A DNA stretch of 63,196 nt, counting the filler, from Sluysia triapertura (taxonomy: Eukaryota): NCBI GenBank assembly GCA_046118255.1. It is 5 parts of 5 records of this genome, joined end to end, with 100 filler letters (N's around TTAATTAATTAA, not from the genome) between each part and the next. Parts side by side here need not be neighbours in the genome. Positions count along the whole stretch, not along the records: positions 22,986 to 34,020 come from JBJNIA010189819.1; positions 34,121 to 49,598 come from JBJNIA010227126.1; 3 more parts are not named here. The stretch is one strand, 5' to 3'. The notes beneath the pieces are model-generated. The model did not search any database and had not been told where the DNA came from. It worked only from the letters and a program-made list of their open reading frames with translations. Position 1 is the first letter of the stretch; every line of letters starts with the position of its first letter. Below, piece after piece: positions 20,879 to 52,270 of this stretch. The translations under genes were made by a program, and so were the position numbers.

Positions 20879-22549
20879 CAGTGGAGTCAAAGGTGCGGCC
20901 CAAAAGAGCTTGAGATGCGGCCCGAATCTTGATAACAATGTATAAAATAATATTATTGTTGGATTAGATTGAAATTTTAATTTAAACTATTTTTAAGCAT
21001 TTGAATATACCAGAAATACGAGAAGACAAGTTTAAAAAAATTAAAAAGTGAACTTAAGTCACAACAATCATTTTTTTAAAAAATCGTTTGAAAACACCAA
21101 AGGTCAAGTTCAAACTAGTTTCATTATTTCGAAACTTATATCCAAACGTGCAAAATGTTTCACAGACAGTGATTTTGTTAAGGGATGCATGTTAAAAACT
21201 TCAGAAGTATTCTTTTAACTATGAAGAAATTGTGTAGCTGATAGAATTAATGATATCGCTACTAATATTATTCAAAATCTTGAAAATAATTTGAGAAATA
21301 TTCAACATTTTTCAATTGCTACAGATATTACCGGACAAGAGCAACTTACTGTCTTTATTCGTGCTTGTGACAAAGATTCTACTGTGACTGAAGAACTCCT
21401 CGACATTTTATCTCTTAAAAACACCACTGCAGGTCAAAACTTTTTTGAATCCGTCGACGAGCTTTTAAGTAAGTATAATCTTCCTTCAATTAAATTAGTA
21501 TGCGTAGCTACAGACGGTGCGAAAGCCATGAATTATAGCTAAATTATTAGCTAAACAACACGATATTTCTCCCAAAAACAAATTTCAACCTGTTCACTGC
21601 ATCATACAAAAAGAGATACTATGTTCCAAAGTAATAAAAATGGAAAACGTTCTTCATTTTATCAAAAAAACTATACATTTTATACAATCTCGAGGTTCGA
21701 ATCAACGACAATTTTCAGAAATTGAAAATAAACATGATGACCTAATTTATTATACAGAAGTGTGTTGGCTTTCCTGCCACAAAATTTTGATGCGGTTCTG
21801 GGAACTTCGTAATGAAATCAAAACGTTCTTAGAAATGAAAAATCAGTCAGTTGAAGAATTTAAAAATAAAAATTGGATGCAGGATTTAAGCTTTCTAAGC
21901 AATATTACACGACATTTAAATGAGTTAAATTTAAAACTTCAGGGTCAAAATAAAGATATAACACATTTAAACTGAAACTCGCAATTTGGAAAAAACAACT
22001 AAAAAATTGTGATTTAGTTCATTTTCCCGCTTGTAAAAGTTATAAAGAATCGTATATTAATTGTAATTTTGTCAAATATACTTCATATTGTGACGATCAA
22101 GCAAGTTCCATTTTCGTATAATTGTGAAAAAGCAAGCAGCAAAGTGCAAATGAAGTGGGTAGAAAAATGTAACGAAGTAAGCATACTCGAGTTTTATTCA
22201 TATTTTCCTGAAACCTTAATGAAATGCGACTGTTTGCTTCAAGAATTATTGCGATGTCTGGAAGTACTTATTTATGTGAGCAGCTTTTTACTTTGCTAAA
22301 AATCACATCGATCGAGGTTAACTAATTAAGAACATCATTATCTCAAAACATAAGACCTAACATTATGAAATTATGTAGGGAAAAACGTTGTCAATCTTCG
22401 TCGAAACAATATTAAATTTTTGTACGTTTTTTATAATCAGTTTCTTCAATAAAACAAATAAAAAATAATATATAAATAAATAATACAAATAAAATAATAC
22501 TTTTTATTTATAAACTTCGATTTTGTTTGCGGCCCTCGTGACACCACTA
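20879..22549 (+). mobile_element. hAT (Buster/SPIN, GTF2IRD2-like) DNA transposon, internally deleted
   Basis: Transposase blocks FSIATDITGQEQLTVFIR, VCVATDGAKAM, HCIIQKEILC, YYTEVCWLS, WMQDLSFLSNITRHLNELNLKLQG, GSTYLCEQLF. TIR-like ends CAGTGGAGTCA / TGACACCACTA with subterminal GCGGCCC. The 8-bp flanks ATTTAGGA / CTTTAAAA fit the nnnTAnnn Buster target. Confidence 0.93.
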
Positions 22550-22985: not shown

Positions 22986-25015
22986 CTATTTTTATTACTG
23001 AAGATTATAAATTCTGACTTTTCTTCATTGATTTTCAAGTATTTATTTTCAAACCATTTTATCAATTCAGAATAGTATATATAATAATAATTAATTCTTA
23101 AAAATCATTGATACAGCTTTGGTAGTCACATGTAATACAAGTCGAGAGAAAAGATATTGACGCTAACGATTTTTGATTCTACATTAATTGTTAAGAATTT
23201 TTTGGATTTTCTGTGCTTTCAATTACCAGTTCTTTTTAAATTGTAGGACTGTTTGTGATCTCAAAGGATAATATTGTGGAATAATCTTTTCGGGAATTTG
23301 ACGGAACTATATTTAAAATTCTGTAAGTTATTATAAAATCGACTCCAAATCTTTATTATTGACTCTAGTTCAAGCTAGAGATAAAATCTCAAGTAATAAA
23401 CATTGAATTTTCTTATATTAGAATTTTCTATAAATTTTCTAACAAAATTTCTATAAAATTGTATATTAAATTAATTCTTTGCATTTGATATTTAATTTGT
23501 AATAAAAATAGAAACTGTGGTTTTTGCACTATTATTATTATTAATTAAACGATATAGGTTGTAGAATTGTTGATAAGTCAGAAGGTTATATTAAGGTTTC
23601 ATAAATTAATTAACCGTAGAAGTGTTCATAAGTTTAAACGGACACATTAAAGTTTTAGTTTCGTTATGAAGATTAAATAAATCCACATAGCTAAGTGAAG
23701 CATATTCAATATGCATAAAAAATCCCACGAGTACGTCGCCTTACGAATAAATCGTATATCGTAGGTGAACCCAGTAGTAACATGCATTTGCACATTAAGT
23801 AAATAATTTTCACAAAAAAACAATGCAGAATAAACTAAGGCCTTTTTAAGTGGTAAATTTCGAATTAGTTCTTTATGTTGTTAATTTTATGTCAATCTGT
23901 TGAATACATACTTTGAAAATTTTATATCATTATGGCTTCTTATCCGCATCCTATTTTACAATATCAGTCAATATTTAAAAATTATAAAAAATCAATAATT
24001 GCAAATTTAAATTTAATAAATTTAATGAATTATTTTTTAGATACATAAATTCCAGGTTACTCCAAATACCTGTTCAACCGTTCTTAGAGACAATTCCACA
24101 ATGACAACTTCAAGTTCACTACAACAACCAATTAGTTCCATAACAACCAATTTTGCTAACCACAAATGGTGAGGAAAATTAGTAAGTTTCAAAAATTAGA
24201 AACATAGACTTCATGATAAAAATAATGATACAACTTCAGACTTTGGTGACAACCATCAAACTATAAGTTTAGATGTTAGTGACGAAAATGTGAAATTGAC
24301 AAAATTTCCAAACTTTGTATATAAGTTAAGTGGCATAAAATCAAATTTAAGATAAATGAAATATTAGGTTGTTCAAAGATGGATAAAAAATAATTTATAT
24401 TAAAGATAAAATGATAAAAAATTAGTTATATGCATAGAAAAAAATCTTGGACAATTAAAATACAGTGTGGATTTTCTTAAAGATCTAAATTACAAAGTGA
24501 GCATCAAGCACTCAAACCTTGAATAATACAAAGAATGAAACAAAAATATTGACAATATAAGATAGTAGAAAATAAAAAATGAACAATAACTTAAAAGTAT
24601 TATTAAGTAACGTGACACAACTTTAACAAAACATACATGTAGGTAATAAAATGATTAAAAAATAAATAATTATAATATAAAATAATAATTACAACAAAGT
24701 TCCATGTTCATCAATATCATAACAAAACATTTGCGTGAAGCATACACAAAGAATTCAGAAAACCGTAATACGATATGATCGTATAAAGAATATGGAATAC
24801 TAGCAAATACAGCATGAGCTATAATGTGAACAAGAACATGGCCAAAATGACATACAATGTCAGCTACAAGGTCCTATATTGGAAAATATAACCAGTCATA
24901 ACAAGGCAATATGAGCAAGAGAAATAAAAAAAATAGTATGTAAAGTAAAAAGTTTATCACTCACATAATATTGTTTACAAGTTGAATCGCAGTAAATATT
25001 TAGGTCGATATTAAC

Positions 25016-25085
25016 ACATTATGAGCGGGGCGGGTATTATTACCCGTTTTATGTACTGTCACTTAAGAATACCCGCTCATAATGT
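25016..25085. repeat. 70-bp fold-back element / mini-MITE
   Basis: Perfect 14-bp inverted repeat ACATTATGAGCGGG ... CCCGCTCATAATGT with an internal CGGGTA/TACCCG pair. Confidence 0.7.
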
Positions 25086-27116
25086 CATTTCTAAAAATAA
25101 GAATAGTAAAATTCGAGTCATGAATGAAAGACTCAAATTAAATTTATACAATAACTTGATTGAGAATTACGAATTCTCCCAAATTGATTATAATGTGTTG
25201 TTCCTTGTACATAGTCGAAATAATGACTATATATCTACAATCAACTTATGAAATTTATTTTATTGAGTTTATAAAATTTTAAATTGTATTAAAAGGTACT
25301 TTATTATTATTCCTATATTTGTTACTGTAATAAAAATGAGTTTGTGGTTTATTATTTAAGATAAAAACTTTTCTATTATTCAAAGTTTAAATTATACTTA
25401 TTCTTTACTAAAGATTACTAACTCTTATTCGCTGTCAAATTATTCGTAAACTCTGAATAAATAAAACATTTGCTTTTAATTTTCTTAAAATTATTCTGAT
25501 TTAATTCTATAATCTATAACTTTTATTTACTAAACTATCTCAATCCTCAGTCTAACATCTTACTTTAAAACCTTATCTATCTGAAAAATGTAAATTCTCT
25601 TTCAAAGTCTCAATTTTAGTCAAAAACTAGAATGACTAAAATTTATTCCCAAATTTTATTATAAAATATTCAATATAATAATAAAAATAAAATAAATGAA
25701 AATGGTTTATTTTAAAAAACTCGATTTTATTTAATATTTTAATTTTAGAATATTGCACTGCTTGACCAGTTGTTAAGTTCAATGATAATCAGTAGTTGGA
25801 TACCTAAAATCTTTCTTTATATAGTATTTTTCACGGGCACTACATTATAGCCAAAAATTTATTAGTTTATATTTGTCATGTGGTTGTCACTCCTCCACAA
25901 AATGAAAAAAGTAATAATAGTTGAAATAATAATGATAATAATAATAATTAATAATGATAATAATATAAATAATTATTTCAATAAATTTAGTTTAAGATTA
26001 GGGCGTTATGTCCATAAATATTAGGGGTTACGCTTTGTAAAGTAAATATTAAATTTCACATTACGTTGTGACACCCGATTTTGATATAAATAACGAAAGA
26101 TTTCGCTACAAAAGATAAAAATTAACAAAATGACTTATTATAAAGCTACATAGTCCTGCTTATTTGGTTCAATTATAAAGTGTTTTTGCTTAAAGTGTTT
26201 AACGATTTATTTTGAACAGTTAAAAATTGTTAATGGATTTCCGCATTATCTAAGTCGTAAGTTGATTTTGTTAGGTTTTTATCCTTAGATAACATAAGGA
26301 TTAAATTTCTATTTAAAATCTAAAAAATTTTTTTTACTAGAATAACTCCAATATCAGAATAAAATTTATTTTGTTATTAAGAATAATCTCAATAATTTAA
26401 TTCCATATTATTATAATTTTCATCGATTTTGTACATTGTGTATCCGTAATGTTCATTGTTTAATTTATACTTTGTGCAATTTTATTTATTAAATTCATCA
26501 TAAAGTACAGTGTTTAAAGGCAGTATAAACTGCTAGAGATCTGATTAAAAATAAATCTTACTATAAGATATATTAGAGTAACAATTAATGTAATAATTCA
26601 CTATAAAATTTAAGAGAAATAGTAATATAAGAAGACTTTCGATCTAAGATTATTATACACATGCAACAAAACCTTAAAGTAAAATAAATCCTGTAACAAC
26701 GTCTTTCGGAGGGTTATATATGGTTAGTTACAGGCGATTCGATATAAATATATTTGTAAGCTTTCGCAAATTAGGAAAAAAACTTGCATATTCTTAATAA
26801 TCAATATTTTCCTATAATTATTTTCGTCATTTTGCGAAATAAATATTTTATGAAATGCGGGAATAAAATATTAAGGCGAGTTGATTTTATTGAATTTGAA
26901 TGAATCTTAATTATGTTTAAAAATTCTGATAGAAACTCTTATGACTGTGGCTTATACCGTGCTTGGTAACGCATTTCATTCATATATTGATGAAAACGTA
27001 TTTGGTATATGTCGAGGGTTTTATGTAATTTATTATTTTAATTATATGACAAAATCGTGTTCCTATTTTTTAACGTTATAAACTTTTATTTTATGATCTA
27101 ACTTACACATTATTCC

Positions 27117-27401
27117 TTAACTATAACGAATAAAATTAATTCTAAATTTATAACAAAATTTTATATTACACAATAAAATAACAGAAACATGCTTGATAAC
27201 ATCAGGGATTTTCTTAGCATCTAAACGATAACGCATACATATATCCATAACATTTGAATAATCGAACCAACTTTTATCAGTTATATTATCTAATGAATAA
27301 TTTCGTATTAGTGCCAAATTACTTTGTAAAATAACACAGTTTACTAAATTAATTGCCAATTCTTTTAAACATTCGCGATAAACTGTAGCTTTTGAACTCA
27401 T
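27117..27401 (-). CDS. Intronless orphan ORF (94 aa), part of the virus-like cluster
   Basis: ATG-initiated, balanced composition, closely follows the upstream degenerate ORF. Confidence 0.5.
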   Translation of the reverse strand: MSSKATVYRECLKELAINLVNCVILQSNLALIRNYSLDNITDKSWFDYSNVMDICMRYRLDAKKIPDVIKHVSVILLCNIKFCYKFRINFIRYS

Positions 27402-28370
27402 TAAATTATTTCTTCAAAAGATGAGTATAACTATCTATTATACCAAGAATATTGAACACATATATTGCTCCACATTTTCACATCAAAATCACAAACATAT
27501 TTCATTACATATGAACATTTTTCGCATAAACAAAACACTAAGTAAATTACTCGAGTCATTCAGAACATAAACACAGTCATTGTATATAATTATCATTAGT
27601 TATGTTTATGATTACCATAACTTCTATTATAATAATTTCTTATCATCGTAACTCTATCAGCATTATTAAATTAAATCATGTAATACTTTTAATCACACAA
27701 TTGTTATCATTATGTGTGTATGTATGTTTATTCATTTTCTGTATGTATGATAACTTCTAAGTCAACCCATCAGATCAATATTAGTAGCATAATTATCAAC
27801 CCAATTAAATAGTCAATAAGCACCACAATCTGCGTAAATACCAATCAATTCATGTTCAGTGATGATAGCACAATTGCATGTGACGTTTCAATTGGAAATG
27901 TTTTGTAATTATGCTATAAAATATTTTGATTTAAATTTATTTAAAGAATTATTTGTATTTTCTAAACATGAAACACTATTTGACTTAAGCACATATTGAC
28001 TTAAGAATTAAACAAATGATATTAGTGAAGCATAAAGTATCAAGTTATAAAGTTAATTTGCAGTTTTAAATTGTTAATATGAAATATGTTTTTCAAGTCA
28101 AAATGATTCAAATAATGTAACCTTTGAATACATTGTTGAATACTCTTGATGCAGACATTGAAGCTTTTATGTTTTCGGCAAAATAAGTTCAGATGAATCA
28201 GTTACATTCTATACCTTATATCCTTCATAAGATTCGAACATTTCATAAATATTTTCCAAATTTTTAAATGGCAAAAATTTATAAATAATCCAAGTCGAAT
28301 TTGCGATTTTATAATCTAAAGAATTAATGTTCTTATTAAACTATTTACCATAGTTGCATAAGTAATCCAT
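27400..28370 (-). pseudogene. Degenerate intronless orphan ORF (MDYLCNYGK*FNKNINSLDYKIANSTWIIYKFLPF...)
   Basis: One frame stays protein-like for ~210 codons with about 12 in-frame stops and no evident frameshift. Confidence 0.45.
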
Positions 28371-28452
28371 TCATGTCTATTTAATGTGATTTTGTAATTG
28401 AAACACTTTCAAAATGCAATATTTTTTAAGGTAGAATGACACGAAATAATTA

Positions 28453-28505
28453 ACTAAAAATGGGCTTTGTATCACTAAAAATGGGCTTTGTATCACTAAA
28501 AATGG
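28453..28505. repeat. 21-bp tandem repeat (ACTAAAAATGGGCTTTGTATC) x2.5
   Basis: Directly visible; lies between the divergent ORFs at 28370(-) and 28755(+). Confidence 0.9.
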
Positions 28506-28754
28506 ATTACCTTTTTATGACTATGCTTATATTTATTCTTTGTATTTACATTTGATGTTATTTGTCAATTGAATTTAAAATGATCTATTGAATCTGCAGG
28601 ATCCTTCTATCTGAAATTATAAAAATATAAAATTTATAAAAAAAATTAATATTAATTAATTTCTGCAACAACAAAAATTAAAAAATCAATAGTTGTGATG
28701 TTTGAAAATGTATAATTCTATGTGTTATTATTGTAATAATTTCACTTGTATTTA

Positions 28755-29027
28755 ATGAAATTAATCTTACCGAAAATACCTGGACCAATATTTGCAAACA
28801 ATACCCAAACTGTAGATTACCGATATGTACGTGAACCATGTCACAAACCGCAAGTTTTTGAAATGAAAGATTACCACATAAGTAATAATAATTTAATAAA
28901 CATTCGAATAACGGATATAAGTGTATGTATTTTATTATTATGTATCGTTGTTTTATTTATTTTTCTTAATAATATGTTCGTTAAGTTGATTAATATTTTA
29001 TTGTTAAAATTTTTCAAAATGTTTTAA
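28755..29027 (+). CDS. Small single-pass membrane protein, orphan
   Basis: MKLILPKIPGPIFANNTQ...ISVCILLLCIVVLFIFL: polar N-terminal part with NxT, then one hydrophobic helix. Confidence 0.5.
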   Translation: MKLILPKIPGPIFANNTQTVDYRYVREPCHKPQVFEMKDYHISNNNLINIRITDISVCILLLCIVVLFIFLNNMFVKLINILLLKFFKMF

Positions 29028-29044
29028 AAATTGTTAAAAAAATT

Positions 29045-30040
29045 AAAATGTATTGTTTTTTCTTAAATCATGAAATTAAAATAACGCCCTCACTAAAATC
29101 ATCTTCTGGTAAACCACAAAAGTTTGTCACCCGATAAAATATAGAATAGTCGTGTCGATAACTTATTCCACCAGTTAATTGTCTTAAATCGACAAGGAAA
29201 CAACGAAATGCCTATACTAAAGCTCTATCATAAAAAACGTCATATAATACTCGAATGATATTTTCATAATTCTTTGTCTTTGAATTAGGTTGCACAGTTT
29301 CACCAGATGGTCGAAATGATGTTGAAGTAGAAGTATCAATAGAAATACCAGTGGTAGAAGAAATAATAGAAATAGTAGTAAAGTAATAGTGGTGGTAGTA
29401 GCACCTTCATCTTCACCACTCTCGGATTTTGAAATTGTATCGTCCTTAGGAGTTTAGTATTGTTACCATAGGCAGTATCAGAGTCAGATTCTACTTTTTC
29501 GCAACAAGTGCTAGATTTTATACAATTATAATTGCATTCGGTATCGTTATGGGAACTGCAATATTATGCAGAATAAGAATAATTCGAGTTTATATCATTA
29601 GGTACATAGGAATTTATAGAAATTGTATTTGGTTTATCACAATTAACAAATGTATCATTTAAATTTAGATCTAGTTTTATGTAACGTTTACTATTGGTCT
29701 ATTTTTTAATTTTATTAAACAATGATTTTAAACCGTGCTTGCATTGAGAATTTGTTATCAAAAATTGTTTTAAATCATCATCTCTATCATAATTAAACCT
29801 TATTGTTATAATAATTAACTATTATTGTAATGTTGAATAAAATGTTTGATTTTTTCTATATCTTTTTAATTTCTCAGTTGGAATTTCATAGCTTTTTCCA
29901 AATTTATTTTTTGGTTTTTAATCGATAGTTTATAATCCTGTAAAATAAATGTTAAAAGTTCGTAAATGTTTCAGAATCGTATCCAAATGTCATGTAATCA
30001 TTATGACTAAAAGTAAATCAATAAGTTCGTATAACATAAT
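29045..30040 (-). pseudogene. Degenerate intronless orphan ORF with Cys-rich and Ser/Thr-rich linker
   Basis: Manual translation: ...YCSSHNDTECNYNCIKSSTCCEKVESDSD...STSTSFRPSGETVQPNSKTKNYENIIRVLYDVFYDRALV*AFRCFLVDLRQLTGGISYRHDYSIFYRVTNFCGLPEDDF. Confidence 0.55.
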
Positions 30041-30419
30041 AGTTCTTTTACTTGAATTAAATTGGTTATTTAATTATTAATATTGTACATGAATTTCTGA
30101 TACTATTTAAAGTATTATGATTTATATATATTTAATATTTTTAATATATTTTTTCAAAAAATTACAGTTCTTTTTGTTTCAGAAATATTATAATGAATGA
30201 TTTATTTTAAACGATTTTGAGCATAATAGTGAAACATATATAAGTAGAAGTAGCAGAAATAATAATAATATAATAGTAATAAAATGCGACGAACAATAAA
30301 AATATATGTATAGAGATAAATATGCATACAAAAAAGAGCAAACCAAGCATTTCAACAACGATAATATATAAGAGATTAGTAATAATGTAATAATAAAACG
30401 GATTTAGGCAATTATGAAC

Positions 30420-32190
30420 TTATTATGTTTATGTGGCTTGATGTGTTGTAGTTTGTTTAATAGCTTTTCATTTGTGTTGATTGCTATGAGTTGATTTGAA
30501 GTTCACTGTAGTATAATTTAAATTTGTTTTTCAGGGTGTGAATACATAAAACGTTGTCAATGCGTAACTGAGCATCACAAAAAAAACTTCTTTATTATTT
30601 CATTAGATGTATTTAATATTGTTTTCATAACCTTCATCATGTTTGATAATAAACTTTTCCAGTATTAATTTTTTAGTTATACGAGTTAGTACTTGTGAAT
30701 CTAGAATTCATTTTTGACTTGCAACTGAGATTGATTTCGGTCTCTGCCTGATTGTAAGAAGTAAACTTCCATCCCGAGTTTAATTCTCATGCAGCTTAAA
30801 TTTACTTATAATTAATGTTATACTTACTTAATTACTCACCGATACAGGCGCCAAATCATTAACTTTATATCAATGGATTAAGATCATAAAATTCGTTAAC
30901 AATAAAATGATTAACAATAAAACCTATAAGAAACTCATAGGTTTTCGGATCGCTCAGTAGAACTACAGCAAGCTTTGATATTGAGTTTGAAATCTTGAAT
31001 GCTTCTGGATCTCTGGCGAAAATATATTTTTCTCTAGAACAGACTCTAACTAAATTATTTATTCCAATCATATCCTTAAAAAGTTAGGGGTTATTAAACC
31101 CTGACACCATTTATTTGGTAATTTAATTTTGAGGTTATTAAAAAGTCTTTTGAATTTATGTAATATTGAAATATTATAACTATTATTTAGAAAAACTTTA
31201 TTACATTTTTAATTTTTATTATGTATATAAGATTTTTAATCATTAAAAGATTAATACGAAACGTAGGATATTTATTTGCTATTACAAAAATTATTTCAAT
31301 AAAAGGACATTTAATAATATGTAAGTTATGTATTAATAATTGATGGTCCATGTTTACATATGTAGTCTTCCACAATCCAAAAAAATAAGTAAAAGTAAAA
31401 TTATGAAGGTCTAATAAAATAGAATAATTTACCTTGAAATTTAAGTTTTCATTTTTCATAAAATGTTTTAATTTGTTTATTGATATACACCATTTGAAAT
31501 GCTAAAAAAATGTTATCAAATATTGAAGAATTTGTTAGTATTGGCTTTGATCTTGAAATAGTTAACAGGTTTGCACTGCGTTCAGAATTGTAGTTGAACA
31601 TCCGACCGTCATTGAAGTTAGGTTCTGCATCTGTCAGACCATGAAAATAAATACAGCGTGGGCCATAGGTAAGACATTCACCGGAATCTGAGAGACCAAA
31701 AAAGACAGTGGCCCATTTTATAATGACATAGGTTAACGTGTGGTTCTGTATCTGAGTCAATTGGAATATCATTGTACGATCTGTCACTTAGAGGTTTGGA
31801 AACATAAAATACTTGAAAAGGTAAATCATTTTCGTAACATGTCACGATACAGAATAATTCGATCTGTCTATTATGATCCTCTTTAGAGATTATGAACTTT
31901 TTAATATAACTTTTTGATTCATCATAGTTTGAAACGGTTACCTTTTTACATGACGCAGTATCTTCTACAATTTCTTCTAAGCTCATAGGTACAAGTAGGT
32001 AACTAAAATAATCATTATAATCGTTTTTAAATGAATTTTCATGAGGTACAACTATTGTGTACTTGTTTTCGATGGAATAACGTAAAAGAGTTTTCTGATT
32101 TATTCGAAATGTTTGAAAAAAATGTTTTCTAATATATTGACATAGTACGAGTTCGTCATTGATAACTTTAAATGAATTTGATAAAAAGTA
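30420..32190 (-). pseudogene. Frameshifted ~550-codon intronless orphan ORF (joins track ORFs 31678-31986, 31449-31787, 31187-31459, 30865-31071)
   Basis: Consecutive overlapping ORFs on one strand. The frame is open upstream of MSLEE (INDELVLCQYIRKHFFQTFRINQKTLLRYSIENKYTIVVPHENSFKND). Probable distant paralog of 50383-51501. Confidence 0.65.
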
Positions 32191-32779
32191 TAAACTGTAA
32201 AATTTTTAAAAATGCTTTTATAAATTGTTGAGCAGAATTAGCGACTCAAAATAATAATTCTTTTTGAGACTACAATAATACGATTACCTGTGCTTGTTCA
32301 AATGATTGTGTTTTAAATTCTAAAATAATTGCGACAAAAATTTGGTGTATGCTGATTGGTTGGCCAATAATGAGTATGATTATAAAATTTTTATTATTGG
32401 AAAACTGTCATTCGTTGACAGCAATATGAAAATCATTTAATGGTAAACGGAAATTTTTTAAATTAATAAAAATAATTAATATTTGAGAAAATAATAATAA
32501 TATTGAATAATGAAAATAATAATAAATTGAAATAAAATCATAATAATAATTTTAATAATAATAGGAAAAAATAAAATAAAATTAATAATAAAAATGAAAA
32601 TAAAAAATGCATAAAAATTTTTACATAAATTCTTTGCTTTTTATTTATCTTTCTTTAAATTAAAATTCTTTTCCTTTTCTTTGAATATAAAATTAAAATG
32701 TAAAAAGAATTTATGAAGTAATGTCAAGAGAGTGTAATAACCTAGTTAAAGGTGTTAATGGAAATTCTATTTAGTTTAT

Positions 32780-34020
32780 TATCTTCATATTTAAATTTAA
32801 ATTACAATTTAAATTATTTTTACTGGAAAGAAATGCTGAAGTGTAACAAAATGTAATTTTTAATGTGATGTAAAAGTTTGATTTTTGATGTATTGAAATG
32901 AATCTAAAATTTTGTGTGACGAAGTTGGCCACCACAAGATGATTTACAATTAGCTTCAAATACAACATTAAGATAATATCTAACTAATTCATTTATTCTA
33001 ATAACATCTTTAAGCTGAATTATTTCATCTAATGATTTTCATTTACTTTGAAATATATATATCCAACGAAATCGTTCATTCTAATATCTTCAAGCTGAGG
33101 TATTTCATATGTGTTTTAAATATAATAACAGGAAGGTATCAAACTAAACCGTCTATGGTAAATTTTTCATTTATTTTGTGCCAAATTTTATTTTTTATTT
33201 TAATTTCTCTATCTGCCAATAAATTATATTTTTAATTTGTACCAACTTTTGTAATAAAATGTCTACTCCCATGAATTGTGAATTGGCATTGATGTAGCCC
33301 ATTCGCATTTCATTGGTTGTTTGGCAGCTTTTAATTTAAGTATTGCGCAATGATAATTGCGTAATAATTTAAGTAACGATATTATTATGATTAAAATATA
33401 AAATGCAAATAATAATTTTACAGATATCTTGGAAACCGTTGCCTATTAAAATGTGCGAAATTTAAAAACTATGTAAATGCGCAAAATGAAAATAATAATT
33501 ATATTTATTAAGTTCGTATATTTAGCTGAATTAGTTTCCGTGTTTCTTTCTAGTAATAGTTCTTTTTCTGATGTATTTGAGTACTTGGATAAATTCAGGT
33601 TGTAACTTTTTAATGATTTAAAGTTTAGACAAGTATTGAAGAAAGCTGTTGAAATGTGAAATGAGGATAATCTATAGGATAAAATTCTTTAATACGTAGG
33701 TTGTAAATGAATGGTTTGGGAACAAAATAGTTTAATGAAAAGTGTTGTTAGTTAATTGATTGTAAAGTTGTAAGATACATGATGTATAAATGACTATTTG
33801 ATGACCTAAAAATGCGTGATTGAATTGCAGGATGAATTTGTTTCTCGATTGAGTCCTATTGCATTTGAATTTGAGGTATCGTATTTGTTTCTGTTTTCGA
33901 ATTTGGTTAATGCATTAAATAATTTAATGTATGACTTTTATTTTGTGAAATTGTATTATTTGATCATTCGTTCATAATCCAATTAAGAGTTGTTTTTTAA
34001 CGGTTTATTTGTATTATAAA
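32780..34020 (-). pseudogene. Two further degenerate intronless ORFs (about 32780-33300 and 33510-34020)
   Basis: YEIPQLEDIRMNDFVGYIYFKV...ELVRYYLNVVFEANCKSSCGGQLRH; and YERMIK*YNFTK*KSYIKLFNALTKFENRNKYD... with only TAA/TAG stops. Confidence 0.4.
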
Positions 34021-34120
34021 NNNNNNNNNNNNNNNNNNNNNNNNNNNNNNNNNNNNNNNNNNNNTTAATTAATTAANNNNNNNNNNNNNNNNNNNNNNNN
34101 NNNNNNNNNNNNNNNNNNNN
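34021..34120. other. Artificial contig linker
   Basis: Same spacer. Confidence 0.98.
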
Positions 34121-34313
34121 TATAAATCAATTTAGTTCTTTAATAAATGTATTTTACAGGTCTTACAAACTCCTTCGTTGTTATAATGTAACTATAAGTC
34201 TTAAATTATATGACAAGATAAGACGAAATTTCGTCAATCGTAATAATAAAATAAATCACAAAGTTCCTAAGTTAAGCAACCAACAAAAGTTTAACAAAAT
34301 CCTTTGTCCAGTC

Positions 34314-34802
34314 ATGTATAATATTCATACAGTTAATCCACACGATTACGAAATCGAGGTCGAAAATTTGAATGATGAAATGACCGTTGATATTAGAGTT
34401 ACAATTAAGCCAGATGAAGTAGGATTCTTTAAGATACTAAAATTCATTAAATGGTTACATCACAACATTATGATACGCAAACACTTCTACATTGATCACT
34501 CTATAAGTAATTACCACATTCAGAAGTGCAAACTTTGTCGCCCTTGTTTTTTTTCAATCCAATTCAAACTTACAAAACCTTCTATAACGTCAAAGTATAT
34601 TAATTTCACAATAAAATTACCACAAGCCTCCATAAAGTCGACCTTGACTTGCGAAATATTAAAATATGTCGTAACAAAGGAGTCATTTTGCTCAAATTAC
34701 CGATTGATCCACATTATTTTATTTTACTTTTTTGAAGCCCTTAACATTAGTATATATATTTTATATAAGCTTACATTTCTGTTTGATATTTCTAAGATTT
34801 GA
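34314..34802 (+). CDS. Intronless orphan ORF with a His/Cys cluster (HIQKCKLCRPC)
   Basis: 162-aa ORF, with the frame also open ~35 codons upstream; probably continues by frameshift into 34732-35061. Confidence 0.5.
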   Translation: MYNIHTVNPHDYEIEVENLNDEMTVDIRVTIKPDEVGFFKILKFIKWLHHNIMIRKHFYIDHSISNYHIQKCKLCRPCFFSIQFKLTKPSITSKYINFTIKLPQASIKSTLTCEILKYVVTKESFCSNYRLIHIILFYFFEALNISIYILYKLTFLFDISKI

Positions 34803-35039
34803 ACGTGTATCGACTTGTTTCCATCTAAATAGTGTCAATGTAGTGCAAAAGATGTTGTTACTCTCAAACTTCCAAAATAACTTAAATAACTCTAATTATA
34901 AAACAATACATTATCAATATTATCGTCTAAAAACATCTCTTACAAAAACATTCTATCCCATAACCCTAAAACATCATCAAAATCGACGTCTTGACTTATC
35001 TATTAAAAAACCATTTTACCACATAACCCTAAAATTATA

Positions 35040-35620
35040 CGTTGTAAGACGTTTAGTGTAAGTGGACCCTGCTCCATTTTTATTTTGCCGTTGGTTTAGT
35101 TTTAAGAAAACCACAGCATAATTAATCTTCAATGATACAAGGAATGCGAAAAGAGTAGATTAATTGTATAAGGTTTTGTAATTTCTAACATTAACTTGTA
35201 GAAAAAATAACATACTAAAATTTTATTAACTTTCCTGGACCGTAAAAAGGCTAGACTAAGTCCCTTAAGTACTTGGTAAACTATTTATTGATATTATATT
35301 TTTTGTGTTGGATTGATGAAGTTTTTTTGTATTGTTTAGAGGAAAAATGTAGTGAATAATTGTTATGTTTATTTCATTCTTAAGCGTTAATTTCTTAATT
35401 TTTTTGACGTATTTGTCAGACCGTAATAGGATGACTTAAAGTTAGTAATCAGACGCGATTAAGCTCTCACAAACGACGATTTGTTAATAATTCATAAGTT
35501 TCGTAATTACTTCTGAACTTTGGCATGTTATTAAATCTTTCACAAAAAATCCTATTGGAACGCATTCTTTGCAGATTTAAATCGTGTCTATTAGGCGAAC
35601 TAACCTTCAGAATTATTTTG
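35040..35620 (-). repeat. Inverted, diverged copy of the long non-coding repeat family at 54833-56000 / 58640-59480
   Basis: AAACGACGATTT (~35471) is the reverse complement of AAATCGTCGTTT (~58821). TTCTAACATTAACTTGTA (~35183) matches the reverse complement of TACAACGTTAATGTTAGAA (~59111). Confidence 0.5.
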
Positions 35621-37419
35621 TTAGTGTAGGTTTACATCTTAGTATAAACACTTGCATTAATAAATACCACACTCATTCTTGCTTATTAAGTGTGATGTTT
35701 AAATTTTCATTTATTATTATTTAATCAAAATTTAAAATAGTTTTAGTTGTCACTATGCTTCTAAATTTTAATATCATATCACTTCTATCTATTCTACCTA
35801 AACTTAATTTAAAATGGTTTTTATCGAATGTAATGTTTTTAAATTCTGATTACATATTATCTCTATTTAATCCTAATTTAACATGATTTTATTTATTCAA
35901 TCAGTGGTGACAGTAGTGTTTAATGTTTAAGTTAAACACTTTCAACATGAAAATTGGAAAATAACTGTTGCTGCAATTATTATACCCATCGCAGGATCAG
36001 TAATGTTATTAATTAAACGATTTAGTATTTAAACAACACTCATATGTAAATGATAAAAAATTGAAAATGATATAGCACTGGACATATGTAATGATGAAAT
36101 ACCAATTGAATAACAAATAAAGTTAATTTTATTCAACTAATTATTTAAGATTTTATTTTCATCATTTATATTTATTCAACGTAATCAATAGTAATGGCAT
36201 AAATGATTACAAACATACATACGTATTATTCATAAATATCTTAAATTTGTGATAACGAATAAAAAATAAACATTTTAATAGTGGTAATAGTAATGAGTAT
36301 TATCCATAATAAATTTCGCAAAATTAAGAATATCTAAATTAACTTTTTATCACACACAATTTTAGAATATTAAATATTTTTGATATTTATAAACTTCTAA
36401 GTATGTTTAATATTCTATGTATTTCAAGAAATCTGTTTTTAATGAGTGATGCTAAATTCAATAGCATAAGACATACACAAAATCTTTGAAAACAGATTTT
36501 AAAAAATGTGTTAGAACTAAAATTTTACAAATTTACAAAATTTGATAGGCGAAACAAACGAAATAATGAACCTGATAAAAGAAAATGATAAAAAAATAAA
36601 AAGCATCAATTCTTTAAATTTCTCAATATTGAAATTTGTTTTAACGAAACAGCAATAAATTAAATTATTCAATGTCTATAAAAATAAGAATTGGAAACAG
36701 TTATAAATTTTTCATGGACAAAAATATAAATATAAAAATAACAATATTGGTATTTTGTACAAGAAGCATTATAATATAAGATGTTTCATTACCAAAATAA
36801 GAATAAATATTAATTATGGTTGAGTTGAGCACATAATCGATTAATGTTATTACTAATTTTCCGCGATATTTAAATTATTATACTCTTTCTCACAACCTAT
36901 TACCATCGCATCCGATGATTTTTAATTGTATCATTAAAATTAAGGTTAGGGAAATCTTCAGATTTTGATTTTCGAAATGAATCACATTTTTTATGCAAAA
37001 CGAAATCTTCATCAATATGATTTTTCGATTTCATTTCTCGTAAAATAGATTCTGAAAATAGTTCTTCATTAAAAGATTCATTAATGTCATTTTTTGTCTA
37101 TGTTGTCGCTAAACATTTGATTTGTTTTATTTGTCAATTTGCTCGTTCTTTATCAAATTGGTCTGAATGTTCATTCGGCTTATTTTCTAAGGACAGATGT
37201 TCCATCAATAAAATTAACAAAACATTGACTTTTTACAAGAATATAGAGAAAATTCGACAATTTTGGGATGCGATTTATAAAGCCTTCTTTGTCAGATGTC
37301 ACTTTTTCATTCATTAATTTGAAAAAATCTCCATAATTACCAATAATAATAGTTGTAATAGTTCCATATACAGGAAAAGATTTCGAAACTAATTGAAAGA
37401 GTACTTATATTTTTAAAAG

Positions 37420-39010
37420 GTTGGAAGTCGCCCAATTAAAAATAAAGCCAACAACATGCGTCTGGACAGAAGAGCAAGTTGAATTCTAGGGGCATCGCAT
37501 CACGGGATGGTATTAAACCAAATCCAAGTAATCAAAGTTCCATAACCAGAGAACTCAAGTTTTTAGGTCTCGCGAACTACTACCGAAGACAGGTTAAAGA
37601 TGTTGCTAAAATAGCAGAACCACTACGAAAATTAACAAAAAAATGACGTAGAATTCGATTGGACTGACGAACAATCTAAGTCATTTATACATCTAAAAGA
37701 AAGGCTTACTGCTACACTTATATTAATTTTTCCAGATGTTAAGTGATGAAAGTAATTACGCCATTGAAGCAATCTTAGGTAAGAAAAATAGTAATTACTT
37801 AGGAGTTATGGCATATGCAAGCCGTAGATTTAACAATTCAGAAATGAATTATTATACGATAGAGAATTGTTTATGCATGTAAATTATTTAGACACTATAT
37901 ACTAGTACAAAAAGTTTATTTGTACACTAATCAAAAAACTTATTTGCATAATCACCAAGATGAAATAGACTAAATAAATGGTTTACAAAATTATCAGAAT
38001 TCGATTTACAAATTAGACTAACCAACATAGATGAAAAAGGAAATATAAACTTTATAAAATTTATGACAATTTCTGGAAAAGTCGAAGATCCCAATGAAAT
38101 TATTAAGTATCAAAAATAAAAGGAACATTAAACGAAAATAAAGTCAAACAACATGCATTTATTGACGATCTATTAAGATTTAAAAACGCCAAGATGAATG
38201 GAAAACTATTGTCCCTTTTTCAATTCCATGACGAACAACAATTAGGAAGAAATTTATCAACAAGAAAAACAGTGTCCAGAATTAAAAATAACTATTATTT
38301 AGAGAATATGGCAAAGGATTGTGCAGTTTGCTGCCGAAGAAAAAACAGGACAAAGAATAAAAGTACCTTTGAAACCTATGGATATTATGTAACCACAAAA
38401 TATAACAAAATATAAATATAAGTATTATATTAACAAAATATAAGTATTTAACAAAATGCTCTGATTGAGAACGTAGAAAAGCTAGAACAAATTCTTGTAG
38501 AAAAAATTATATACACCAAGAAAACTATTTACTAATCAAAATACCAATTTCATTAGAGAATTTATACGTCTCTAACCATCTTTAGTTAGTGGAGAAATTT
38601 AATCGAACATTTACAAGCCTCTTACAATCATATATTAACGACCGACAGAATGATTGGTACTTATGCATAGCACCATGCTTATTCGTCTACCACAGTTCAG
38701 TACATCCAGCAACAAATTTTACTCCATTTTATCTTACGTATGGATTTTATCTTATATGCTTGTTTATTTAGAATATTTACAATATTTTAAAATCACCGAA
38801 TATGCAACTATCTTTGGAAGTACTATCAAGAAGCTTACAAATACACATATGACAAAAAGCACATGAGCATAAATTTCGGATGGGAGATAAGTATTAGTTG
38901 ATTACCCATTGTAAAAACCAAAATTGCTCTTCAAAATTACATAAACCATTCAAATGCCCACATGAAGTTATGAAAATTACATCCACTAATTGCATTTGTG
39001 ATACATGATA
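37420..39010 (+). mobile_element. Ty3/Gypsy pol remnant: RT end, RNase H, integrase
   Basis: LKIKPTTC..VEF*GH, FLGLANYYRR, IAEPLRKLT, FDWTDEQSKSFIHLKERLT, MAYASRRFNNSEMNYYTIE, FHDE..RKTVSRIKNNYY..CAVC, EKFNRTFTSLLQSYINDRQNDW..HPATNFTPFYLTYG, KLHKPFKCPHEV (decayed GPY/F). Confidence 0.93.
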
Positions 39011-39099
39011 ACAGGTGTAAAATGACACCAAAGAATAATATATTTTACGAAATAGAAAGGTTGGAAATAAAATCTTGTAGGTTAAACCAAAAACCAAGT

Positions 39100-39642
39100 A
39101 CCGACAAAATCTCATCTGTACTATTCATTGAATTTTCAAAGTCATATATTTCAGAACATACATTTAAATGCAGATGGATAAAAGCTGTAATAGATACAGG
39201 AGATACTACATATGCAGTTCACAGAAGTTTTAAACGCATTGAAAGTGACACTGATAAATCAAATAATGCAGTTTAAGATATTAACATATGCCCATACTAG
39301 TGCAATATAATTTTAAGTGAATATACAGTAGTACCTATAAATGTATAGGACAACAGTCCATTTGAATTAATAATTAGCAACTTCGACGATAAAGTTATAC
39401 ATAGTAAATATAGATTTGTCAAATTACCACAAGGATCACATATGATGGTACCAGAAATTGTTGTTCCATGTGTTGAAGATGAATTAACATTGTTACAAAC
39501 GCCGATTCTAAATTCGGTCTTTCAGTTTCCGGAAGCAACAACTCATGTATCTATCTCTCTGATATCAACTCCAGAACTACCCAATATTCAAACTTTGAGT
39601 ACAACATTTGAACCTTCCACTGAATCCATAATCTCGCCGTAA
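39100..39642 (+). mobile_element. Retropepsin-like domain downstream of the integrase, then a Pro/Thr/Ser-rich tail
   Basis: LFIEF...RWIKAVIDTGDTTYAVHRSF; DTG at 39193-39201 in a typical hydrophobic-hydrophobic-D-T-G context. Confidence 0.55.
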
Positions 39643-39709
39643 TAAGCTCCAATTTATCTTAGTAATGTGATGTTTGAGTAAAGACAGAATGACTATACGA
39701 ATTCTCTGA

Positions 39710-40950
39710 ATGAAATTGTTTGTGACACTACTTATTATTGCATCATATTGGACGGTTATAACTGCTACAGAACCGACTGAGAAGGAAGAATTTCGAAATA
39801 TGAATATAGTTATTAACAGCGAAAGAAAACAAGAAATAATATTTACAATAGCGATTGGAAAATCTAATTCATTTCTAAAAACCTTATTTTAAGACACACG
39901 TTTGTGGTTTACTGTATTTACATGAATCCGACCTATGCTAATAGGCTTCACTACAGATAACACCGAAAATTCACGGGCTGTACAAAAATTTAAGACAAAA
40001 CGAAACAATGTGATGATGTAAAGTTAAACGATAAACCGACTTATGAGAAAGCAACAAAGACAGATTCATTAAGGAATATCTCAAACAGACCATGGATAAA
40101 GTTTTACTTTTCGATGTAGTATATGTGATGGGAACTTTATAAAAGGAACTTATTGCCATGGTACTACTAATGATGACTTTTTTAACTTATTATCATAAAC
40201 AGATATATAAATTTGAATATTTTGAGTTTTATAATTTGGATACAGAGCTGAAAGTTAAATTGTTTCATAAGGATATTCGAGTTAAATTTTAGTACTTCGA
40301 TTATTTCGGAATATCACATAAACAATCTAATAAAGCCATACGTTAAATGCTCCGCTTTTCATGCTAATGAGAAACGACATAATACAGCTAGAGCGATTAC
40401 ATTTTGCATATTAGGCACACAAATATCTTTACTTTATTTGAATCTAATTAAATAATATACGCTCAACCTTAGTAGTTTGCATGAGCCTTTCACATATTTC
40501 TGAAATGCATGCAATTCCTACAAATACTTATTTGAAAAACCTAATACCAAAAAATATTCAACATAAAATTACCTTAGAAGCTCATTTATGCTACTATACA
40601 TAGAAACGGTAATAAAATGATCAATATCACAATGCAATGTTGTACTCCAAATTGGTATCGTGACGAATTCCATATTTCAAAGCAAGATTTTATTGGATTG
40701 TATTTTTGAATATCAATTAGAGTTTAAATATAGTCCAAAGGTTGGCTCGAAAAATGTATTAGTGTAAAAACACAAAATTAGAATGAATCCTTTCGTCTTC
40801 CAAGAACTCTCAATGATGATCGAAGTGCCCCTGACAATCTACCGTTGGAAGATAATACCATTATTATCACTTTTGAATTTCATTATGGATTAATATCTCC
40901 TAAGCGCGACATTAAATTATTTCATCTACCGAGTATTAGAATGTTGATTA
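39710..40950 (+). pseudogene. Degenerate extra ORF with signal peptide downstream of Gypsy pol (env-like position)
   Basis: MKLFVTLLIIASYWTVITA|TEPTE signal peptide, basic FKTKR motif ~85 aa in, Cys-containing decayed continuation. Confidence 0.45.
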
Positions 40951-41779
40951 TTTTTTAAAACTTATTTAAAGCCCTCAGCGCCGACCAAAAATACAGTAAT
41001 GTTTTATAAATAAAGAAAAAATAAGTACCTGCTTCAACTTGATTATCTTCGTACAACTTTTTATATAAATATCTGATGTCTTTAACTATAGAATCATAAA
41101 GTTCTGGAATTAAAATTATTTATTGTTTAATAATTCTTACTGTTATTTTCCATGGATTCACTATCGGAATGTCTGAAAATTATTTATCCACTTAAAACAT
41201 AAATAATATATTATTACAATTTATTTACTTATATTATTACTATTATTTTATTATTATTATTTATTAATATTATTTGTGCATTAGCATTAATTAACAAATA
41301 ATACAACGCAAACGCAAATTTTAGATTTTATTCATGAACAGTTTTAAAAATATTCTTAAAACTGTATTACAATTATGAAAAATAATAATTATTTAATATT
41401 ATCAAATTTTGTATTAAAACGTCAGTAGTAAAAATATAAATACATTTTATGATTGAATTTATTTGGAAACTAATCAAAAACATTTATTTCAAGCAATTGT
41501 ACATTTATTAATATTTGAAACATTAAGTTTAGTAAACAAATACCATTTTGAAAAAACGGTACTTACTACTAACTTTTCTGGAAATTGACCGTATCGCAAA
41601 AATAAGACACACTCCAGAGCAATATTCCCTCTAAGCTGCGCACTGCGCGACCGCGTAGTATATTAAAACACACATTATTATCAGTATTATAAATTTTAAA
41701 AATTTGCTCAGATTGCTACAAATGTTCGCCCGTACCTTTAATATTTGCACATAGTTAGTACATCGATGATGGAACACTG

Positions 41780-42413
41780 CTCCAAAGATTCTGGTTTATA
41801 ATATATTATTTCATATTGCGCTCATATCTACTACGAAAGTACTCAAAGGCGCTTAAGGTAAATCATTCACCATAATATTTCTGAAACAGAAACAACTTTC
41901 CCTTTTTCTTATATATTTCATAATCTTCTAATAATTTGACATTCTCTGGTAAGTGGTTGTATATTTTTGATACAGTATACAACCTATCACCTAGTTTGTT
42001 ATCAATGTGGATTCCGTATAGATTATTGTCTCAATGAAATATTCATCTTGGTTTCCAATTTTCGTATTATTTCTAAAAGATATTCAGGACTTTCGTACTG
42101 TAAGCATTTCTAAATTATTGTCATAATTTTAAATTATATTCTTGCTTTTATTGACAATCAATGTAATTCCTTAAGATAAAGATGTTATATGAGATTTTCT
42201 TCCAACTTGGAGAATTAGTCTTGCAGCTTGATTAATTATTAAATGTAATTTTTTCCCTTTTCTATCTGAAAATGAGTACAATAAACCATTGTTAAAATCT
42301 ATGTTACTAGTTATCAATGTATCAACAATAAGTTTAGCTGTTTCTTTATTAATATATTTTCGAATATGCGACAGTATTTTTAATTGATATTTACATTTTC
42401 TAATGTTAGCCAT
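41780..42413 (-). mobile_element. L2/Crack-type LINE ORF2 C-terminal region
   Basis: IRKYINKETAKLIVDTLITSNIDFNNGLL...INQAARLILQVGRKSHITS..LKELH.LSIKARI.FKIMTII.KCL is the canonical post-RT block of L2/CR1-group elements. Confidence 0.9.
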
Positions 42414-43091
42414 ACCTCGAAAACAAGCAATTTCATTATAAAAATTATTATAAAATATAATTTACAGTTTCTTAAAAATAATCCATCACTTGTACCCCCT
42501 ATCTATTTTATAATTATTACATTATTTTACTATTAAAAATTAATATTTTTAATGTTAATTTACGTAAATGCAATCACATTAATATTATCAATATCATAAA
42601 ATACAAAATGTTCCTTTATTTGAATGTTTATTATTGCATTGTAAAAATTTAAATGTTTTTCGAATAAAATATAATTACATGAAAACGCAAAATGTCGTTC
42701 AACAAAAGTATCAATTTCCTAATCACTCTAAGAGTTGCTTCAACAATACGATTAAGACAATTATGAAATCAGAATATAATTTGAAAAATCTGAAACATTA
42801 TTTTGAAAATCAATTAATTCTTCGATACTTAAAATTATACATGTAATATCATTAAGCTTATGTAACATTAAGATTGTAATACATAAAATAAGGAATCTAT
42901 CTAATAAAATATACCACAGATAATAATTTGTACAAAAATTCTATAAAAAATTTATAACATAATATACAAAACAATTTACTTGTAGGTAGTTCAATTAAAG
43001 TAGTTTTAAAATTACTAATGTAAAATTGAGTAAAATTTAGCATAAAATTTGTTTTATTAAATATTATTTTAATACTTTAGTAAAGAAATTT

Positions 43092-45639: not shown

Positions 45640-45821
45640 ATATAATAATTTACTAGAATTTAGTTATGAGTTTAAAATTTGTATAAAGATGAAAGAATAA
45701 TACTCATCTATTTCTCCCACCTAACAATCTTATTAAACAAATTTCATCACCATAAATCTAGTAAGCTCTATTTATCTATCTTGTATTCTGTTCAATACCT
45801 AAGAGTGTTACGGAAACTTAT

Positions 45822-46606
45822 AAAATTTTCGATAATATTAAGTGAATATAGAGATATGTAGTCGTCAAGAAAGGTGTCACTTGATATCTAAATGTTTATT
45901 TTTATAAAAGCTATTTAATAAAAGGTGTTTGCGTTTTTTAATTATTATTGCGAGGATTATAAATTAATGTTTGCAACATTAAATAATAAAGTTAAAAATA
46001 ATTTCAAATAAATCAAAATAATCTTAAAATAGCTCAGGAATAAAGGGTGACAGTGAAACTAAAAAACTAAAACCATAATAACAAATATGATAACGAAATT
46101 CCTTCATCCTTTTTCATAATACCCTTATACGCTTTGGTAACCAATAAATTATGTACTAACTATATTACTGTATAAGTGATGGACTTCCAAAAAAAGTAAA
46201 TAATTTAGCAACAGAAAAGAAAGCTAACATGAAAATTTTCGATAATATTAAGTGAATATAGAGATATGTAGTGGTCAAGAAAGGTGTCACTTGATATCTA
46301 AATGTTTATTTTTATAAAAGCTCGAAGATCTTAGAGTTGCATGATTATAAATTAATGTTTGCAACATTAAATAATAAATTTAAAAAAATAATTTCAAATA
46401 AATCAAAATAATCTTAAAATTAAAATAAATCTTAAAATAGCTCAGGAATAAAGGGTGACAGTGAAACTAAAAAAAACTAAAACCATAATAACAAATATGA
46501 TAACGAAATCCATTCATCCTTTTTCATAATACCCTTATACGTTTTGGTAACCAATAAATTATGTAGTGTATATAGACTGCATAAAATAATGGGAAAAGAA
46601 AGCTCT
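45822..46606 (+). repeat. Tandem duplication, ~410-bp period
   Basis: Near-identical copies starting at 45822 and 46232 (AAAATTTTCGATAATATTAAGTGAATATAGAG...CCAATAAATTATGTA). Confidence 0.95.
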
Positions 46607-47229
46607 ATAATGACTAAATTGACTAATTCACAAGTTACTTTTAAAGAATTGAACATTCAAAATCTGGTCATTAGAGTTTTTTTGACAGAACGATTACGAA
46701 ACAATTGCATGAAATCTAGAAATTATTGCATTGCAAATAGTCAATGAATCAAGAGAAGAATATAAATTAATAGAAATCGAATGCAGTCAACTCGATATAG
46801 AATTAACAAACTATCAAATAAATTAACGAAATCATACAGTTCTCGTAATGGCCCATCGCACTTCTAGAAATCATCTTGTATTTTAATTAGTTCTCAATCA
46901 CCCAGATGATCTTCAAGGATCAATGATTCAGTAGTTATCCAATAAAAAAATAATAGAAAAATGGTAGATAATTTTATCGATTTAAGTTGGTAATAATAAA
47001 TAAATGTTGGCATTTGTGACTTCTGTAACATAATTTATTCAAAGTAGTCATGAAGATTTGCAAATAACTTTAATAAAATTTTAATAAAAGTACGAGAAAT
47101 GTGAGAAAAACTACTCCATTACAAGAATGTTAACGGGTGATGTAGAAAAAATTTTATTGCTAAATAATTAATATGAATATTCATCCAAACCTATATCAAT
47201 TATTTCGTGTCACTATATTAAGCATTCAG

Positions 47230-48600: not shown

Positions 48601-48715
48601 AAATTGATCATGTGACGATTATTTTCAATTAAGTGTAAAATTAAACAATAAAAAATTCGTATTCTCAGTATTTACTAATTTGAATTAATCGTACTTCAGT
48701 TACGAACAATTTAGT

Positions 48716-49146: not shown

Positions 49147-49176
49147 CTACTTTAGTTCAGTTAATGATGTTTATAA

Positions 49177-52200: not shown

Positions 52201-52269
<69 letters not shown>
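52201..52269. repeat. (AAT)n microsatellite
   Basis: Directly visible. Confidence 0.95.

Positions 52270-52270
<1 letters not shown>

Follow-up and report, generated by a model that had tools for sequence, protein, structure and literature searches.

Decaying intron-free orphan genes in the Sluysia triapertura genome: a possible remnant of an integrated large DNA virus

A group of intron-free orphan genes in decay, part of it multi-copy, was characterized in the genome of Sluysia triapertura (assembly GCA_046118255.1), within a stretch of 63,196 nucleotides (nt) referred to here as the window. The window is composed of five contigs joined by four linkers, and the group, hereafter the cluster, comprises the last 6.9 kb of contig 3 (27117-34020) and the first 0.9 kb of contig 4, two contigs that share no shown link. 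The sequence-only reading that preceded this work had described a dense array of about eight intron-free frames, proposed as an endogenous large DNA virus or giant mobile element. The feature is real but was overstated there. Tentatively, and with less than even confidence, the stretch is interpreted here as the decayed remains of part of a large DNA virus that had integrated and whose family is absent from databases, a reading weighed below against the cargo of a giant transposon, lineage-specific host genes and an artefact of reading.

Open reading frames (ORFs) are more numerous in 27117-34020 than expected, with 18 of at least 60 codons (6.9 expected), 6 of at least 90 codons (0.6 expected) and a longest frame of 175 codons (91 expected); none of 200 Markov simulations reached any of these three values. 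Coding potential was assessed with a codon-position model whose training set was 16 frames from elsewhere in the window (fewer than 2,000 codons), and each candidate was compared with the best-scoring of the six frames of simulated DNA; with a training set this small a heavily decayed gene could escape the model. Three clear intron-free genes were found, at 29089-29660 and 30865-32195 on the minus strand and at 34122-34802 on the plus strand, together with two small intact ORFs (27117-27401 and 28755-29027) that are probable genes of borderline support (p 0.03 each, uncorrected for the roughly 25 frames tested). Four other frames were indistinguishable from non-coding DNA, which lowers the earlier count of about eight. 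The features of the cluster, including those that fell away, are the following, with proteins given in amino acids (aa).

27117-27401, minus strand: intact 94-aa orphan ORF with a diverged multi-copy relative; probable gene
27468-27640: high-copy host repeat, not a cluster gene; 76% identical to 14975-15151 and related to 15619-15739
27762-28382, minus strand: stop-riddled frame, doubtful gene; 13 stops in 207 codons, coding p 0.08, DNA multi-copy
28755-29027, plus strand: intact ORF of 90 aa whose C-terminal segment is hydrophobic; predicted small membrane protein, multi-copy, probable gene
29089-29660, minus strand: broken gene whose N-terminal part contains Cys and then turns Ser/Thr-rich, followed by a globular C-terminal part; the frame changes twice and there are internal stops
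30166-30221: short dispersed repeat with a second copy at 41842-41897 (84% identity across 56 nt, E 2e-9)
30390-30680, plus strand: Cys/His-rich frame with 4 stops in 97 codons; coding p 0.97, not supported as coding
30865-32195, minus strand: long broken gene (~440 codons) or three tightly packed genes; four pieces, three frame changes
31641-31725, minus strand: single CCCH zinc-finger motif, tristetraprolin-like; its first Cys precedes a frame change
32700-34018, minus strand: possible heavily decayed frame, interrupted by 22 stops over 439 codons; neither its score (p 0.07) nor its stop count (p 0.10) separates it from non-coding DNA
33501-34019, plus strand: frame not supported as coding (p 0.83)
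34021-34120: artificial linker joining contig 3 to contig 4, a 12-base spacer set between runs of N; the three other linkers have the same form
34122-34802, plus strand: 226-codon orphan frame opening contig 4, 162 aa from the first ATG; coding p 0.0025 (the same for 34122-34799)
34708-35061, plus strand: 117-codon frame, doubtful gene; p 0.03, Viterbi score 0.2, with a 63-nt duplication at 34905-35030

Several details of the earlier description hold up in this list: a small membrane-type ORF is present at 28755-29027, although its coding support is borderline, a further coding frame does open contig 4, and the linker separating it from contig 3 is artificial. The Cys/His-rich proteins did not survive, the frame at 30390-30680 scoring as non-coding.

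The broken gene at 29089-29660 is supported by both the codon-position scores of its pieces (29220-29453, p 0.0025; 29215-29406, p 0.0075; 29339-29563, p 0.01) and a Viterbi segment at 29089-29800 scoring 12.8 against a null maximum of 8.2. Its reading frame changes near 29455 and 29385. A short-read contig covering 28989-29594 spans both changes and one of the stops with no differences and no gaps; the short-read run may be the assembly source, and the match excludes long-read errors, yet is not independent. A suspected resemblance of 29020-29277 to a BEN domain gained no support from Pfam.

The long gene at 30865-32195 is a chain of four pieces, 32205-31708, 31706-31452, 31501-31190 and 31083-30868 (p 0.0025, 0.0025, 0.13 and 0.005, respectively), whose frame changes lie near 31700, at 31450-31500 and near 31100; a Viterbi segment at 31494-32181 scores 22.9. 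An ORF of about 550 codons had been proposed, which is replaced here by this chain, interrupted by three frame changes and several stops, with about 440 codons in its supported part and no uninterrupted frame above 175 codons in the contig 3 part. The upstream extension at 32206-32436 scores as non-coding (p 0.998). Possible splice signals coincide with the borders of Viterbi coding segments (a strong acceptor, 32194; a GT, 31490; an AG, near 31075), and between 31490 and 31075 the G+C content (GC) falls to 19%, with 11-18% in most 60-base windows. This would suit a very unlikely alternative, in which the cluster is an artefact of reading made of one spliced host gene or pseudogene (exons at about 32194-31491 and 31074-30865), small repeats and chance frames, and the four frames of the first description that score as non-coding fit it as well. 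The supposed intron, however, stays open on the same strand for 104 codons, a length reached by 1 of 3000 simulations and by none of 139 comparable AT-rich windows elsewhere, in which the longest frame is 87 codons; the intron-free reading of the long gene, as one broken gene or three tightly packed ones, is therefore favoured. The artefact would, moreover, leave 29089-29660 and the two small ORFs with their relatives unexplained, and no alternative stop-codon assignment rescues the frames, which Spiroplasma- or ciliate-type codes did not lengthen beyond the null. The intron-free layout described at the outset, with coding signal but without introns, is thus retained.

Within the long gene, the CCCH region matched four PDB sequences at E values up to 10, all four of them CCCH fingers (1m9o tristetraprolin, 6nzl, 9y10 and 1rgo; E 0.39-2.4, none significant), and the Pfam families zf-CCCH_UNK (E 0.011) and zf-CCCH_2 (E 0.04) both miss their cut-offs. 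The likeness to tristetraprolin (ZFP36/TIS11) lies in one finger, where the residues about the last three ligands are similar. Members of that family carry two tandem CCCH fingers spaced 8-5-3, the canonical spacing read from the PDB alignments, whereas the present protein has a single finger with an apparent 9-6-3 spacing and is otherwise an orphan. No homologue of 30865-32195 was found by protein search for the longer pieces, by an index-free search with the 175-aa piece or in metagenome contigs. The supposed presence of a tristetraprolin-like gene in lymphocystis disease virus could not be confirmed.

A single sequencing run carries the locus (share of words 0.85), and no RNA run is among those listed. 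Depth was measured in that run over 22986-30090, the left part of the cluster only, at 85% likeness. Zero-difference contigs tile 23043-30081, the eight longest on 22986-30090 having depths of 11-24 (mean 17), and one of them (25977-27412, depth 18.5) runs from the left flank into the first ORF; the cluster is therefore chromosomal. As expected of an endogenous viral element, it is joined to host DNA at host depth and carries inserted host repeats, in a run that may itself have supplied the assembly, and its intron-free genes appear, from the codon model and the short-read match, to be decaying by stops and frameshifts.

Copy number is not the same along the measured part. Diverged relatives of the left 2 kb (27015-29147) reach 13-19 times the depth of this copy at the 94-aa ORF and 13-30 times at the membrane ORF. 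Single contigs at depths of 213, 236 and 318 cover the 94-aa ORF as diverged relatives, compared with ~17 for this copy, variants of the membrane ORF occur on 7-12 contigs (summed depth 220-515), and relatives of 27800-27877 lie on 3-9 contigs (summed depth 67-190). Summed depth is not copy number; judged by the single contigs, there are roughly 13-19 near-identical relatives for each unit of unique depth. From 29148 to 30090, summed depth is 38-56, i.e. background, compared with 35-54 in quiet flank bins. The left 2 kb thus belongs to a multi-copy family and the 29089-29660 gene, at 85% likeness, does not; part of the block is apparently repeated ten or more times. The proposal of a decaying, multi-copy, intron-free element accordingly held in two respects, the high-depth relatives on the left and the breaks of 29089-29660 reproduced by a short-read contig, although the high depth did not extend to 29148-30090. 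A freely replicating virus as the source of the high-depth relatives is disfavoured, the contigs being short and of differing depth.

The stop-riddled frame at 27762-28382 lies in the same frame as 27117-27401 across the inserted repeat at 27468-27640, which has a summed depth of up to 14,800 and at whose edge, 27468, 35 contigs leave the stretch. The second inserted repeat, at 30166-30221, presumably represents the 3' tail of an L2/CR1-type long interspersed nuclear element (LINE). A perfect 21-base tandem duplication of 2.5 units is present at 28453-28505, between two cluster frames.

Searches for relatives and domains were largely blank. With stops read as X, neither a transposase nor a reverse transcriptase (RT) nor a viral hallmark domain was detected in any cluster frame, in agreement with the original observation that none resembles a transposase or RT and that no hallmark gene is present. 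Rfam and a tRNA scan gave no match for the cluster, scans of metagenome contigs, prokaryote genomes and phages were blank, and none of 10 exact protein look-ups succeeded. PDB sequence searches were also blank, save for one row at E 0.00025, a designed repeat protein whose score was summed from five weak stretches. No homologue was found for the 226-codon frame of contig 4. Single-sequence folds were unusable, with predicted local distance difference test (pLDDT) values of 35.5 for that frame and 32.4 for the other protein folded, and the structure searches made with them (Foldseek best E 0.009 and 0.011; VIA best Z 5.0) carry no meaning. For Herpesvirales or Teratorn-like elements, no Pfam domain of PolB, terminase, major capsid protein, helicase-primase or piggyBac transposase was found in the frames scanned, the element running off the contig. 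For Naldaviricetes, Pfam revealed no pif genes, lef-8/lef-9, p33 or PolB in cluster frames; one ac78 match in contig 5 (E 0.084) is at chance level. For Polinton/Maverick elements, PolB, rve integrase, packaging ATPase, protease and jelly-roll capsids were not detected in this fragment by Pfam or PHROGs. The herpes-, nudi- or Polinton-like class first suggested therefore gained no support, from hallmark gene, homologue, usable fold or late-promoter signal. An account of this element was not found in the literature, in a search that was no test of novelty in print.

The integrated-virus reading draws on the frame excess, the codon-model support for three genes, the disfavoured intron, the chromosomal junction and the high-depth relatives of the left block. 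It draws further on the mixed orientation of the genes and on their make-up, in which a zinc finger and a Ser/Thr-rich protein occur together with a small membrane ORF, a mixture that fits the accessory regions of large DNA viruses. It also draws on a second, unrelated cluster of the same style in contig 5. A considerable set of results weighs against it. Frame excess is found elsewhere in the window too (36 frames against 18 expected in 35062-49598, and 21 against 8.5 in 1-11077), and the five supported genes cover only ~36% of 27117-34020, which is sparse for a virus; the description of the cluster as dense was given up on both grounds. There is no compositional step, the GC of the cluster being 24.8% and that of the left flank 24.3%. 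No match at cut-off to Pfam, PHROGs or NCBIfam was obtained for cluster frames, intact or with X at stops; three word-indexed searches with the cluster proteins, one of them for longer proteins only, were blank; an index-free search with the 175-aa piece alone gave no match among 1.84 billion protein representatives; and none of six scans of viral contigs gave a match. The TAAG late promoters of baculo- and nudivirus type were not found within 120 bases of any of the three frame starts tested, and TAAG density, a weak feature in decayed DNA, shows no excess (6.7 per kb in the cluster, 6.9-12.1 in six other regions). Among the 40 of 125 differences listed between this copy and a high-depth relative, 16 fall in the 94-aa ORF, where they create no stop in its frame and give no significant sign of purifying selection (5 of 16 synonymous, 23% expected, p 0.29). 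The frames have not decayed to the same extent, something that a single neutral insertion would not predict, and copy number varies along the cluster as well. Finally, the host exons described below are orphans too, and the orphan status of the cluster therefore proves little.

Comparison with known integrated viruses yields a similarly divided picture. Ant endogenous naldavirus elements related to CjLGDV are virus-like tracts with premature stops and inserted transposons, some of which multiplied after integration into clusters of copies 81-100% identical; they were recognised because their proteins share 22-77% identity with those of a sequenced virus, and core genes are among them (PMC12548425). 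The cluster resembles these elements in being stop-riddled, transposon-invaded and partly multiplied, and differs from them in that nothing in it matches any virus. Crustacean endogenous nimaviruses are large DNA viruses present as chromosomal elements, of which a haploid genome holds 22-477 copies; many of their genes are hypothetical, and they have 31 core genes, an integrase and insertion into set repeats (PMC10871703). Core genes, integrase and set-repeat insertion are not seen in the cluster, along which copy number is also uneven. Ichnovirus IVSPERs, compact chromosomal clusters of viral genes at host coverage, are too divergent for core-gene searches, so that a real viral tract can fail hallmark searches (PMC8325570). 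IVSPERs keep synteny between wasp species and produce particles, whereas the present cluster is broken, sparse and devoid of detected homology.

The cluster may instead be the accessory (cargo) region of a giant transposon, such as a long terminal repeat (LTR) element with extra ORFs, a Helitron or a Maverick-like element, with its enzymes outside the contig and deleted derivatives multiplying a terminal block. This is unlikely, though a serious contender. Decayed transposons abound in the genome (Tc5, gypsy RT, RNase H, integrase zinc domain, hAT), high copy is confined to the left 2 kb of the part measured, as deleted derivatives would give, and the gypsy element at 37370-38900 is trailed by orphan frames on the same strand (38974-39900), which indicates that elements here carry orphan ORFs. 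Teratorn, Polinton/Maverick and the planarian Burro are large multi-copy elements with accessory ORFs of unknown function and decaying fragments bearing stops and frameshifts (PMC6431247). In contrast to these elements, no transposase, PolB, terminase, capsid, gag-pol or terminal repeat was detected in the cluster fragment, and domain scans did not find the BIR, MATH and ankyrin domains of Burro elements. No transposase or RT was found in contig 3 beyond 22986, and no RT, RNase H or integrase in 22986-37000; terminal repeats of at least 12 bases between 26601-27200 and 27201-37000 were likewise missing under the filter used, though the right end lies outside the contig. Burro/Ogre-type LTR elements encode a gag-pol polyprotein and have LTRs flanking their accessory ORFs, whereas the gypsy pol described here belongs to contig 4, which has not been linked to contig 3. 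Mixed gene orientation is also less usual for LTR-element cargo.

Another explanation, which we likewise regard as improbable but not far-fetched, is that these are host genes peculiar to the lineage, poor in introns or lacking them, of which some are dead and others segmentally duplicated, and whose proteins are too divergent for databases. In its favour, host-type exons in the window are orphan as well, with none of seven reaching a Pfam cut-off and no match in a PDB search with two of them, and the frame excess in most contigs, the lack of a compositional step and the absence of a high-depth relative of 29089-29660 all fit ordinary host DNA; CCCH fingers and Ser/Thr-rich proteins are common and fast-evolving in animals. 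The sole traceable host gene, however, is built differently. Located at 4109-5310 on the minus strand, it consists of exon 5098-5310 joined to exon 4109-4291 across a GT..AG intron of 806 bases and 21% GC with matching phase, its exons having 35-37% GC, unlike the long single blocks of the cluster. It confirms that at least one spliced host gene is present in the window, and the contrast originally drawn with host genes is weaker than claimed, the host exons being orphan too. Adjacent unrelated orphans, two of them dead and with 13-30-fold relatives, would moreover seem more typical of mobile DNA, and no paralogy links the clusters of contigs 3, 4 and 5 (no non-self matches).

Under the integrated-virus reading, a virus genome would have entered the germ line and its accessory region would have landed at this site, to decay without selection, and part of the region, or a sister element, would have multiplied. 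The host repeats were inserted later, as the sequence shows. While the virus was alive, its Ser/Thr-rich protein and the product of the small membrane ORF might, judging by composition, have been envelope or surface accessories, and the CCCH protein might have bound host or viral mRNA, as its single weak motif hints. The decayed cluster would now do nothing.

The window as a whole is repeat-filled and very AT-rich, with a GC of 21-27% per contig, and the genome is probably that of an invertebrate animal. Decayed transposons occur at 723-929, 8135-8700, 21225-22300 and 41842-42461, with matches to a Tc5 DNA-binding domain (E 9e-7), an RT (E 2e-5) and the hAT-type DUF4371 (E 2e-6); the last site, where Pfam is blank, is taken by us to be an L2/CR1 LINE end. 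In contig 4, the decayed gypsy pol at 37370-38900 has RNase H (E 3e-7) and integrase zinc domain (E 6e-5) matches, and the long orphan frames that follow it are possibly env-like or an accessory ORF. Beside it, a weak dDENN match on the minus strand (37183-37404, E 5e-4, below cut-off) is possibly a host exon. Orphan coding-like frames with internal duplications are located at 43143-44705 (43664-44015 against 43961-44298, 91%) and 45418-46931 (45822-46175 against 46232-46584, 83%), and a GC-richer (35%) orphan coding-like stretch with stops at 47094-48134 on the plus strand. Two copies of a short dispersed repeat, 79% identical, lie at 10448-10607 and 60069-60233; the repeat is presumably tRNA-derived, although ARAGORN and Rfam find nothing. 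Very high-copy repeats at 22986-23222, at the start of contig 3, and 24882-25118 reach summed contig depths of ~299,000 and 28,600, compared with ~17 for unique DNA.

Contig 5 carries the second cluster of intron-free orphan ORFs, at 50302-54561 on both strands, which is better preserved than that of contig 3 and for which no homologue was found. The 372-aa ORF belonged to the training set of the codon model and has no p value of its own.

50383-51501, plus strand: ORF of 372 aa
51629-52027, plus strand: ORF of 132 codons
52341-52793, minus strand: ORF of 150 aa
54277-54555, minus strand: ORF of 92 aa, membrane-type

It is doubtful, although conceivable, that the clusters of contigs 3, 4 and 5 are pieces of a single family, as yet undescribed, of virus-like mobile elements or large DNA viruses, which would have colonised the genome many times and whose genes seen here lack any relative among billions of catalogued proteins.

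Altogether, the cluster is a lead that comes without an identifying gene. If it is transposon cargo or a set of dead host genes, it would represent ordinary genomic litter in a divergent lineage. If it is viral, it would mark a lineage of large DNA viruses that is invisible to homology screens, in a group of animals that has been sampled too little, and since three of the five contigs carry such orphan frames, the element could account for an appreciable part of the genome.

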